A DNA stretch of 31,327 nt, taken from the NCBI GenBank assembly GCA_030917145.1, contig JAUPVJ010000041.1, positions 1-31,327 of the forward strand, written 5' to 3'. The first letter of the stretch is position 1, and each line of letters starts with the position of its first letter. A program made the translations under genes and the position numbers. The notes beneath the pieces are model-generated. The model ran no database searches and had not been told where the DNA came from. It saw nothing but the letters and a program-made list of their open reading frames with translations. Positions 26,718-28,636 of the stretch are shown piece after piece. Source of the DNA: Patescibacteria group bacterium (lineage in GTDB: Bacteria > Patescibacteriota > Minisyncoccia > Phycocordibacterales > CAIRYW01).

Positions 26718-27029
26718 ATGGAAAGAGACGCACAGTTTCTAGAATTTGTTGTCAAATCTCTTGTTGACAACCAGGATGCAGTAAAGATTAATAGAACAGT
26801 AGACGAAATGGGAGTTTTGCTCTCACTTTCAGTTGACCCAGCTGATATGGGAAAAGTGATCGGACGAGCAGGAAACACTGCTAAAGCTATCCGAACACTA
26901 CTACGAGTAGTTGGAATGAAAAACAACGCTCGAGTAAATCTAAAAATAAATGAACCAGAAGGTTTTGTAAAAGAAGCAACTTCAACAACAAAAACAATTG
27001 ATGAAGCGATGGAAGACCTTAATATCTAG
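26718..27029 (+). CDS. khpA: KH-domain RNA-binding protein KhpA (YlqC)
   Basis: LVDNQDAV, VDPADMGKVIGRAGNTAKAIRTLL; rpsP-khpA-trmD synteny. Confidence 0.92.
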   Translation: MERDAQFLEFVVKSLVDNQDAVKINRTVDEMGVLLSLSVDPADMGKVIGRAGNTAKAIRTLLRVVGMKNNARVNLKINEPEGFVKEATSTTKTIDEAMEDLNI

Positions 27030-27062
27030 CTTAGAGCTTTCAACTTCTAGCTTTCAAGCTTA
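27028..27062 (+). repeat. Heptamer array after khpA
   Basis: agcttag agctttc aacttct agctttc aagctta; a related copy lies at 28370-28397. Confidence 0.75.
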
Positions 27063-27095
27063 AAAAACAAACTCCGAAAGGAGTTTGTTTTTTTT
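27062..27095 (+). terminator. Terminator after khpA
   Basis: aaaaaacaaactcc-gaaa-ggagtttgtttttt perfect stem. Confidence 0.9.
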
Positions 27096-27096
27096 G

Positions 27097-27124
27097 TTGA
27101 CAGGGATTTGAAAAGGGTTAATAT
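27097..27124 (+). promoter_or_regulatory. Promoter of orphan unit 1
   Basis: TTGACA-16-TAATAT. Confidence 0.6.
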
Positions 27125-27130
27125 TCGACT

Positions 27131-27300
27131 TGGTAGACACTCAGTGGCGAAAGACGATCCCTTTGGCCGTCCCAGGATTGTTCCAGTGAGAGGTTCTTTA
27201 CTTGTCGGTAGTCGACAGCGGCTAACTAGCGATTGCCTATAGGTCTGAGAACCTTGTTTACTAAGACGCTTCCGGAGGGTTTCCTCTGGAAGCGTCTTTC
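27131..27300 (+). ncRNA. Candidate structured small RNA (or 32-codon GTG micro-ORF 27144-27242) with its own promoter and terminator
   Basis: Helices ctcagtgg/ccagtgag, gacgatcc/ggattgtt, aggttct/agaacct, tgtcg/cgaca; ends in a 16-bp hairpin at 27263-27298. No known RNA family recognised. Confidence 0.4.
27263..27298 (+). terminator. Strong hairpin ending orphan unit 1
   Basis: aagacgcttccggagg-gttt-cctctggaagcgtctt (one G-U), followed by a U-rich tail. Confidence 0.8.
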
Positions 27301-27303
27301 ACT

Positions 27304-27331
27304 TTGACTAAATTTTGTTTTAGGGTATTAT
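27304..27331 (+). promoter_or_regulatory. Promoter of orphan unit 2
   Basis: TTGACT-16-TATTAT. Confidence 0.6.
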
Positions 27332-27337
27332 CCTTTT

Positions 27338-27628
27338 CGGCATAAACGGTTAGGGCGCAGACAAACCACCAAAGTGAAATATCTGGAAGTGGTCCTGCAT
27401 TTAGGGTTCGATTCCCTTAGACCGGATCGAGAAATAGTTCTTTGTACCCAGTATAGGTTGGGAGACTACGATATTCCAGTTTCGGCTGGGGTTGAGTCGC
27501 AAATGTAATACCACCTGCAAGGAATGAAAAGTATCCACGCTATCAAAGCTTCGGCTGAGACGAACGGCGGTCTTTTCAAGATTATTGCTAAGCCGGTCGA
27601 TGGCAACATCGACCGGCTTCTCTCTTTT
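27338..27628 (+). other. Orphan transcription unit 2: 44-codon GTG ORF (27374-27508) and/or RNA with a T-loop hairpin
   Basis: Bounded by a promoter and a terminator. ORF MKYLEVVLHLGFDSLRPDREIVLCTQYRLGDYDIPVSAGVESQM; aggg-TTCGATT-ccct at 27403-17. Confidence 0.4.
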
Positions 27629-27629
27629 T
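27590..27629 (+). terminator. Terminator ending orphan unit 2
   Basis: aagccggtcgatg-gcaa-catcgaccggctt perfect 13-bp stem followed by ctctcttttt. Confidence 0.85.
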
Positions 27630-27654
27630 ATATTTATGCTATCTTGGTATTTAT

Positions 27655-27690
27655 GACTTATCACTTATCAACTTTCAACTCATAACTTTC
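27655..27690 (+). repeat. Degenerate heptamer array in the trmD leader
   Basis: ACT cores at 27656, 63, 71, 78, 85. Confidence 0.55.
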
Positions 27691-27692
27691 TC

Positions 27693-28376
27693 ATGGTTTT
27701 CCACATAATCACATTATTTCCCGAACTTCTTTCCGGCTACCTGTCGGACTCTATTTTGGCGCGGGCAATTTCTGAAAAGAAAGTGTCTGTAAAATTTTAT
27801 AATCCTCGAGATTTTGTAAAAGTAAACAAATCACAAAAGGCGAAAGAAAAGCCATATCTACGTGTCGACGACAAACCGTATGGTGGTGGTCCAGGAATGG
27901 TGATTGAAGCACTTCCTATACTAAAAGCAGTTGAGGGCGCAAAAGCAAAAATTAAAAACCAGAAAGCAAAAATAAAAACTATATTTTTTTCTCCAGGAGG
28001 CAAAAAATTTGATACAGCTTATGCCAAAAACGTTTCTAAAAAATTCACAGATATAATTTTAATTTGCGGTCGTTATGAGGGGATCGATGCAAGAGTAAAA
28101 AAGATATTAAAAGCAGAAGAGGTTTCTGTAGGAGATTTTGTACTTACAGGAGGGGAAATCCCAGCAATGATTCTGATCGACTCAATTTCGCGACAAATCG
28201 AAGGGGTCTTGGGTAACTTTGATTCAAGAGAAGAAGAAAGGGTAGCAAGTTCTGAAGTTTACACTCGACCAGAAGTTTTAGAATATAAGGGGAAGAAATA
28301 CAAGGTACCGAAAGTTTTGCTTAGTGGGAACCACAAGAAAATTGAGGAGTGGAGAGGGAAGAAGTTTTCAGCTTAG
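27693..28376 (+). CDS. trmD: tRNA (guanine-N1)-methyltransferase
   Basis: FHIITLFPE, VDDKPYGGGPGMV, ILICGRYEGIDAR, VSVGDFVLTGGE, YTRP, VPKVLLSGNH. Confidence 0.98.
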   Translation: MVFHIITLFPELLSGYLSDSILARAISEKKVSVKFYNPRDFVKVNKSQKAKEKPYLRVDDKPYGGGPGMVIEALPILKAVEGAKAKIKNQKAKIKTIFFSPGGKKFDTAYAKNVSKKFTDIILICGRYEGIDARVKKILKAEEVSVGDFVLTGGEIPAMILIDSISRQIEGVLGNFDSREEERVASSEVYTRPEVLEYKGKKYKVPKVLLSGNHKKIEEWRGKKFSA

Positions 28377-28401: not shown

Positions 28402-28432
28402 AAAAAAATAGAGCAAAAGTTTTCCTTTGCTC
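28402..28432 (-). terminator. Terminator of the 54-aa ORF
   Basis: gagcaaa/tttgctc stem; the A-run at 28402-08 is a U-tract on the minus strand, immediately after the TAG. Confidence 0.7.
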
Positions 28433-28597
28433 CTAGGTCTCGTCAGTCTCGTCTGTCGAGTACGTCACAATCATGAAGCTTAGGCGGTCTACCCAAACGC
28501 TTGTTGCGTGGACTTTGATATTTTTACCCTCCAGCCATTTGGAATAGTTTTGGCATAGTTCCGCGGCGCTTCGGCCAGAAAAGAGCTCTGTTTTCAT
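28433..28597 (-). CDS. 54-aa microprotein, Cse60/DUF2758-like pattern (not in ORF track): MKTELFSGRSAAELCQNYSKWLEGKNIKVHATSVWVDRLSFMIVTYSTDETDET
   Basis: Hand translation; promoter TTGACA-18-TAGAGT(TGn) 9 nt upstream, terminator right after the stop. Family call made by eye only. Confidence 0.65.
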   Translation of the reverse strand: MKTELFSGRSAAELCQNYSKWLEGKNIKVHATSVWVDRLSFMIVTYSTDETDET

Positions 28598-28606
28598 AAC
28601 AAATGT

Positions 28607-28636
28607 ACTCTAACACAAATGTTTACATATTGTCAA
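28607..28636 (-). promoter_or_regulatory. Promoter of the 54-aa ORF
   Basis: Minus strand TTGACA(28636-31), 18-nt spacer, TAGAGT(28612-07). Confidence 0.6.

Follow-up and report, generated by a model that had tools for sequence, protein, structure and literature searches.

A candidate family-less small RNA gene in the hypervariable khpA-trmD spacer of a Patescibacteria group genome

The locus between khpA and trmD in this Patescibacteria group genome raises the question of whether the stretch that begins directly behind khpA is a new RNA gene, as a preliminary description of the DNA had proposed, or something else. The genomes of CPR bacteria are tiny, and very few regulatory RNAs are described for them; a non-coding spacer of 660 nt with two RNA genes is therefore unusual. 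The window (the whole stretch of DNA that was analysed, 31,327 nucleotides, contig C41) belongs to an assembly of 574 kb that is 72% complete and from which the genome's own 23S gene is absent. Judged by the names that its TrmD relatives carry, the genome belongs to the Paceibacteria/Parcubacteria of the CPR. The genes run nusB-Nudix, rnc, a short smc, rpsP, khpA, a 663-nt gap, trmD and rpoB. The gap itself consists of two tandem promoter-to-terminator units, unit 1 at 27097-27307 and unit 2 (its RNA at 27338-27619), which begins with a promoter at 27304 and closes with a terminator at 27590-27619. Their features are as follows.

27064-27095, + strand: intrinsic terminator of khpA, read from the sequence (14-bp stem, GAAA loop, T-run)
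27097-27124, + strand: promoter P1 of unit 1, TTGACA, 16-nt spacer, TAATAT (10 of 12 consensus positions)
27131-27263, + strand: RNA body of unit 1, predicted as a closed three-way junction (MFE of -51.8 kcal/mol, identical to the centroid; z -3.88)
27140-27190, + strand: predicted arm 1, a hairpin with two bulges (CGAAA and CUU) and a CCGUC loop
27191-27254, + strand: predicted arm 2, a long irregular hairpin (AGGUUCUU/GAGAACCU at its base; apical loop of 7 nt, CGGCUAA)
27264-27307, + strand: terminator hairpin of unit 1 and its interrupted U-tract, from sequence and fold
27304, + strand: promoter of unit 2, TTGACT-16-TATTAT, from the promoter scan
about 27401-27419, + strand: tRNA-like T-arm of unit 2, from the sequence
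27436-27528, + strand: complete look-alike of the 23S L1 stalk (H76-H78) in unit 2, from alignment and consensus fold
27590-27619, + strand: 13-bp terminator of unit 2, from the sequence

The khpA terminator, which is kept in the closest species (G002), forms the upstream boundary of unit 1, and P1 lies where it had been placed at first reading, two bases past that hairpin. A counterpart of P1 stands at the same place in G002 (TTAACA...TAGTAT), and the -10 region of P1, AGGGTTAAT, is similar to the promoter of one homologue of unit 2, that in G039. Transcription of unit 1 is predicted to start at about 27131. At the far end the 16-bp terminator hairpin noted earlier is indeed found, at 27264-27299, with one G-U pair and a GUUU loop; the U-tract behind it is interrupted (UUUCACUUU), and a strict terminator scan did not list this terminator because the U-run is broken. 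Its tail overlaps the -35 box of the next promoter.

Between these signals lies a body of 132 nt (the predicted transcript, with terminator, is about 170 nt), the ends of which pair with each other: a closing helix of 9 bp, two of them G-U, joins 27131-27139 to 27255-27263, and both the predicted start and the terminator sit flush against it. Folding reproduces the 5' hairpin with its CGAAA bulge that the first reading had drawn, while the domain behind it, drawn at that time as multibranched, is a single long irregular hairpin in the best fold. None of 200 shuffles folds as well as the body, and none of 200 as well as the unit with its terminator (z = -7.25); the reverse complement reaches a z of only -0.11, a strand asymmetry that arises because 9 of the 50 pairs are G-U. 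The mean probability of the MFE pairs in the body is 0.97, and 3 out of 300 shuffled sequences fold into a closed three-way junction whose ends pair. The genome has 90 intergenic gaps that measure 150 nt or more; if those with a tRNA, tmRNA or rRNA gene are set aside, their best-folding stretch is 27170-27299, which covers arm 2 and the terminator. The strand asymmetry of the body (27150) is within the range of the genome's LOOT RNA locus.

That locus (RF03000, 84 bits; G000 contig C57:2415-2544, minus strand; L126 67-196) offers the nearest comparison within the same genome. LOOT RNA resembles unit 1 as a self-contained intergenic unit that is GC-rich for its genome and folds on one strand, but it belongs to a conserved family, whereas unit 1 has neither relatives nor any sequence or covariance-model relation to LOOT. 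Strongly strand-asymmetric intergenic folds are also seen in the genome (G000) at C46:9811-9960, C65:5225-5414, C68:2506-2635, C43:8906-9035, C35:1545-1674 and C41:7517-7646; these six stretches may be further candidate RNA genes, some of which could overlap known ones. Between trmD and rpoB, the minus strand carries a separate self-contained unit at 28410-28636. TG precedes its promoter, TTGACA-18-TAGAGT, and the ATG of a 54-codon frame (28597-28436) follows the predicted transcription start by a few bases, in leaderless style; this frame is absent from the protein collection. The terminator of the unit is at 28433-28410.

Unit 1 belongs to no known family. Searched with the Rfam models at gathering score, the entire window gives no match, and at E <= 10 the region 26950-27750 contains nothing relevant. 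The Rfam comparison that the preliminary description had called for, with 6S in mind, therefore yields no family, 6S included. Together with a strong, strand-specific fold, a GC content of 0.50 against 0.37 for the genome and the lack of any protein family, this upholds the proposal of a candidate new ncRNA.

The suggestion of a 6S-like rod, made at first reading from an alternative pairing of the ends (ctcag/ctgag, ggcga/ttgcc), has fared less well. The rod can be drawn, but at -35.3 kcal/mol against -51.8 for the best fold; enforcing it costs 16.5 kcal/mol and leaves it an ensemble weight of about 1e-12. A divergent 6S RNA would sequester RNA polymerase by mimicking an open promoter; the length of unit 1 is roughly right for one, no 6S RNA was found elsewhere in the genome, and 6S shares with unit 1 both its paired ends and its place among the small, abundant-type RNAs of 150-200 nt. 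Yet RF00013, with its gathering score of 46.4 bits, has no match in the window or the genome and none at E <= 10 in 26950-27750, and 6S is a rod with a central bubble, where unit 1 is an unconserved three-way junction with no such bubble. A single-sequence covariance model of unit 1 moreover finds no match among 150 genomes of the order, nor in any of the family's 20 other species; the absence of unit 1 from every relative searched makes it a poor fit to a housekeeping RNA such as 6S. We regard this identity as close to refuted.

Other known classes can be set aside as well. Both tmRNA and RNase P RNA are located elsewhere in the genome, and ARAGORN reports nothing in the window. SRP RNA is rejected, given that neither the small nor the large SRP model matches any of 21 relatives and that Ffh and FtsY were not found. 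Since unit 2 contains an rRNA look-alike, unit 1 was also examined as a possible rRNA fragment; nhmmer with its filters off, run against the 16S, 23S and 5S rRNA, RNase P RNA, tmRNA and LOOT of the host genome and its relatives, gave nothing below E = 0.3, and no similarity to the relatives' 5S and 23S rRNA. The phi29-type packaging RNA and 5S rRNA are built on three-way junctions at about 120-170 nt, and so are similar to unit 1 in shape and size; they differ in that unit 1 has no Rfam match to either and no phage context. It is not a MITE or REP repeat, being single-copy in the 574-kb assembly, itself 72% complete, nor a remnant of rimM or another protein gene, as no frame has a Pfam match. 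At that level of completeness, another copy or the gene of a partner may lie outside the assembled part. A riboswitch or another family of cis-regulatory leaders is contradicted by the lack of an Rfam match and of conservation, and by what comes next, which is a promoter with an RNA gene. Local alignment of unit 1 with unit 2 is no better than with shuffles, which discounts a tandem duplicate, and membership in the family of unit 2 is rejected because the L1-stalk model matches only 27436-27528 and unit 1 lacks a T-arm. Duplex prediction between unit 1 and neighbouring leaders gave nothing above shuffles, a method that we consider uninformative at such lengths.

The 32-codon GTG frame to which the first reading drew attention is present, at 27144-27242, nested within a 44-codon TTG frame whose start lies in the promoter. 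If it were a gene its product would be an Arg-rich peptide of 32 aa. The frame is open, small basic ORFs follow the same kind of promoter in two relatives (G011 and G015), and the missing Shine-Dalgarno sequence says little, as this signal is weak before the neighbouring genes too. The GUG start, however, sits within the helix at the base of arm 1 in the predicted fold, no frame of unit 1 has a Pfam match, an exact look-up of the peptide in a collection of 15 billion proteins finds it absent, and the frame is not kept in G002. The fold signal, moreover, is at the level of RNA and specific to one strand, and we consider a small-protein gene very improbable.

What unit 1 does have is its own promoter and terminator, few open frames and a fold on the + strand only, as would a stand-alone small RNA gene. 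It has no counterpart sequence in the genomes searched. BLAST against 60 relatives and against 400 genomes of the class (about 460 in total) finds no match, nor does the covariance model in 10 syntenic loci with filters off or in 20 loci with L1-stalk modules, nor nhmmer in about 105 syntenic loci, and the phage and plasmid collections are likewise without a match. With no homologue to compare, covariation and purifying selection are without support.

The khpA-trmD spacer around unit 1 is hypervariable: mostly 60-150 nt long, it measures between 0 and 1751 nt in 79 relatives, where it carries unrelated inserts and small ORFs. No rimM stands between khpA and trmD in any TrmD-anchored locus, whether from 24 related genomes or from 80 metagenome contigs found with TrmD as query, the top match of that scan being only 74% identical. 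Five other TrmD proteins (P0121-P0125) are at least 90% identical to that of this genome. Among the relatives whose spacers hold small ORFs or tandem units (loci L015, L019, L028 and L011), G011 and G015 encode Lys/Arg-rich peptides of 36-43 aa, G028 a hydrophobic peptide of about 70 aa, and G012 has two tandem promoter-to-terminator units.

Comparison with G002, the closest species, delimits the replacement. DNA identity is 96% in rpsP, 94% in khpA and 87% in trmD; it is 73% from the khpA stop to the -10 box and 65% from the second terminator to the start of trmD, and between the -10 box and the second terminator nothing aligns. About 465 nt (27125-27589) are thus specific to the species, with other DNA at that site in its sister. 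There G002 keeps the promoter and the flanks around one unalignable 118-nt body and a terminator that resembles terminator 2. This body also folds on the + strand only (z -2.77 vs -0.08), and its predicted fold is the same closed three-way junction, flush between start site and terminator, a shape that 10 out of 300 shuffled versions of the G002 unit also take. It is an orphan too, with no match in 400 genomes of the order.

Such a pattern could be left by a non-functional relic, foreign or rearranged DNA that landed in a recombination hot spot, perhaps together with unit 2, and we hold this to be a possible, if minor, explanation. It is favoured by the species-specific segment with other DNA in the sister, by an identity that drops to 73% and 65% in the flanks after 94-96% in the genes upstream, by the unrelated inserts among the relatives and by the lack of a homologue in the genomes searched, and recently acquired, non-working DNA can also fold strongly. 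On the other hand, random or decaying DNA would not keep a fold so strand-specific and so well defined, the sister species retains the promoter, and what replaces unit 1 there has the same rare closed shape.

Unit 2 is like unit 1 in the style of its promoter and terminator and in its strand, and the two are adjacent within the species-specific segment; it differs in having a T-arm and an L1-stalk module, neither of which is present in unit 1. When the whole variable segment was searched with BLAST, 27450-27514 matched the 23S rRNA genes of three genomes, and the differences between the stalk module and the three aligned 23S copies are compensatory changes. A model of the module finds the 23S copy in most relatives, as well as three matches outside 23S, in G039 (L170), G033 (L169) and G023 (L171); each of these homologues has its own promoter, the GGGTTCGAnTCCC T-arm, the stalk and a terminator, and G023 also has a normal 23S stalk. 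Judged from its sequence, unit 2 is a member of a conserved RNA family that is not catalogued in Rfam. No neighbour like unit 1 lies beside the three homologues or in 17 viral contigs with the stalk pattern, from which it follows that unit 1 is not a partner of the unit 2 family.

That the two units together might form a long 5' region of trmD, with conditional read-through of both terminators, has some points in its favour. From the second terminator (27619) to the start of trmD at 27693 the scan shows no promoter, the only recognisable promoter of G002 lies upstream of its unit and terminator, the second promoter is similar to the trmD promoter of relatives with short spacers, and the U-tract of the first terminator is weak. 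Against such a cis-acting leader, there is no match to a riboswitch or leader family, no convincing antiterminator is seen to compete with the 16-bp hairpin, and a leader that senses a ligand or a protein would be expected to be conserved, which unit 1 is not. Unit 2 is moreover a stand-alone RNA gene, found away from trmD in G039, G033 and G023. We think this arrangement unlikely. The missing promoter and the weak U-run do make some read-through likely.

The stalk look-alike draws attention to the ribosome of this lineage. A search of 25 relatives for ribosomal protein L1 (PF00687) found none, and helix 78 of the L1 stalk is missing from the 23S fragment of G002 (L142). Both results agree with a published account in which some CPR have lost L1 and helix 78 (bioRxiv 10.1101/2022.01.07.475337). 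Unit 2 has a free-standing, intact copy of the stalk despite L1 not being found in the relatives and helix 78 missing in G002. The 23S genes of relatives also carry insertions: a GCGAAT-repeat insert just past the L1 stalk in G377 (L133), and more than 500 extra nt near model position 2650 in the G002 fragment; in G248 (L144) the gene is 4358 nt long.

A second apparent loss concerns the SRP pathway. The RNA models, small and large, have no match in up to 21 relatives, the Ffh M domain (PF02978) and FtsY (TIGR00064) were not found even in complete genomes, and no SRP54 GTPase domain (PF00448) rises above cut-off, again even in complete genomes; the searches covered G001, G003, G011, G021, G023 and up to 21 relatives, and the control genomes all scored. 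A full-text literature search found no report of the absence of the SRP pathway in this order. If real, the order would be without a nearly universal system.

Returning to unit 1, we favour a stand-alone small RNA gene in a hypervariable spacer, confined to this species among the genomes searched, and give this reading a probability of about 0.5. That unit 2, with the same style of promoter and terminator, is a conserved RNA gene implies that such units are real genes in the lineage. Beyond the signals, the strand-specific fold, the lack of a known family and the absence from relatives, all of them observed, we infer transcription, stability and mode of action as follows. RNA polymerase would start at about 27131 from the near-consensus sigma-70 promoter and would stop, at least in part, at the hairpin that ends at 27299; with the weak U-tract, some polymerases would probably run on into unit 2 and trmD. 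The two ends of the body would pair to form the three-way junction with its two long arms, and the terminator hairpin would follow directly, so that both ends would be buried in helices, which suggests a stable RNA. The predicted single-stranded parts are short loops only (CGAAA, CCGUC and CGGCUAA). As a guess from shape alone, unit 1 may act as a folded particle, be it protein-binding, a decoy or a loop-loop kisser, and not as a linear antisense RNA.

We favour rapid turnover of the sequence, or its exchange, at a local hot spot. In genus g7 the units found at this site likewise have 5' and 3' ends that pair with each other (UAGAG/CUCUA), and only the edges are common among them. We put forward tentatively, as an idea that we think improbable, that unit 1, the G002 unit and those of genus g7 belong to one syntenic class of small RNAs. 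Its members would retain their edges (promoter, paired ends and terminator), while the interior is replaced altogether between sister species. If true, such a class would point to diversifying selection or to the exchange of cassettes, for example where these episymbionts are in conflict with phages or with their host cell. If expressed, unit 1 would add a small RNA without a family and, together with its replacement in G002, a case in which shape and signals outlast sequence. The value of the locus lies mostly in the L1-stalk mimic of unit 2 and in the apparent loss of protein L1 and the SRP pathway.
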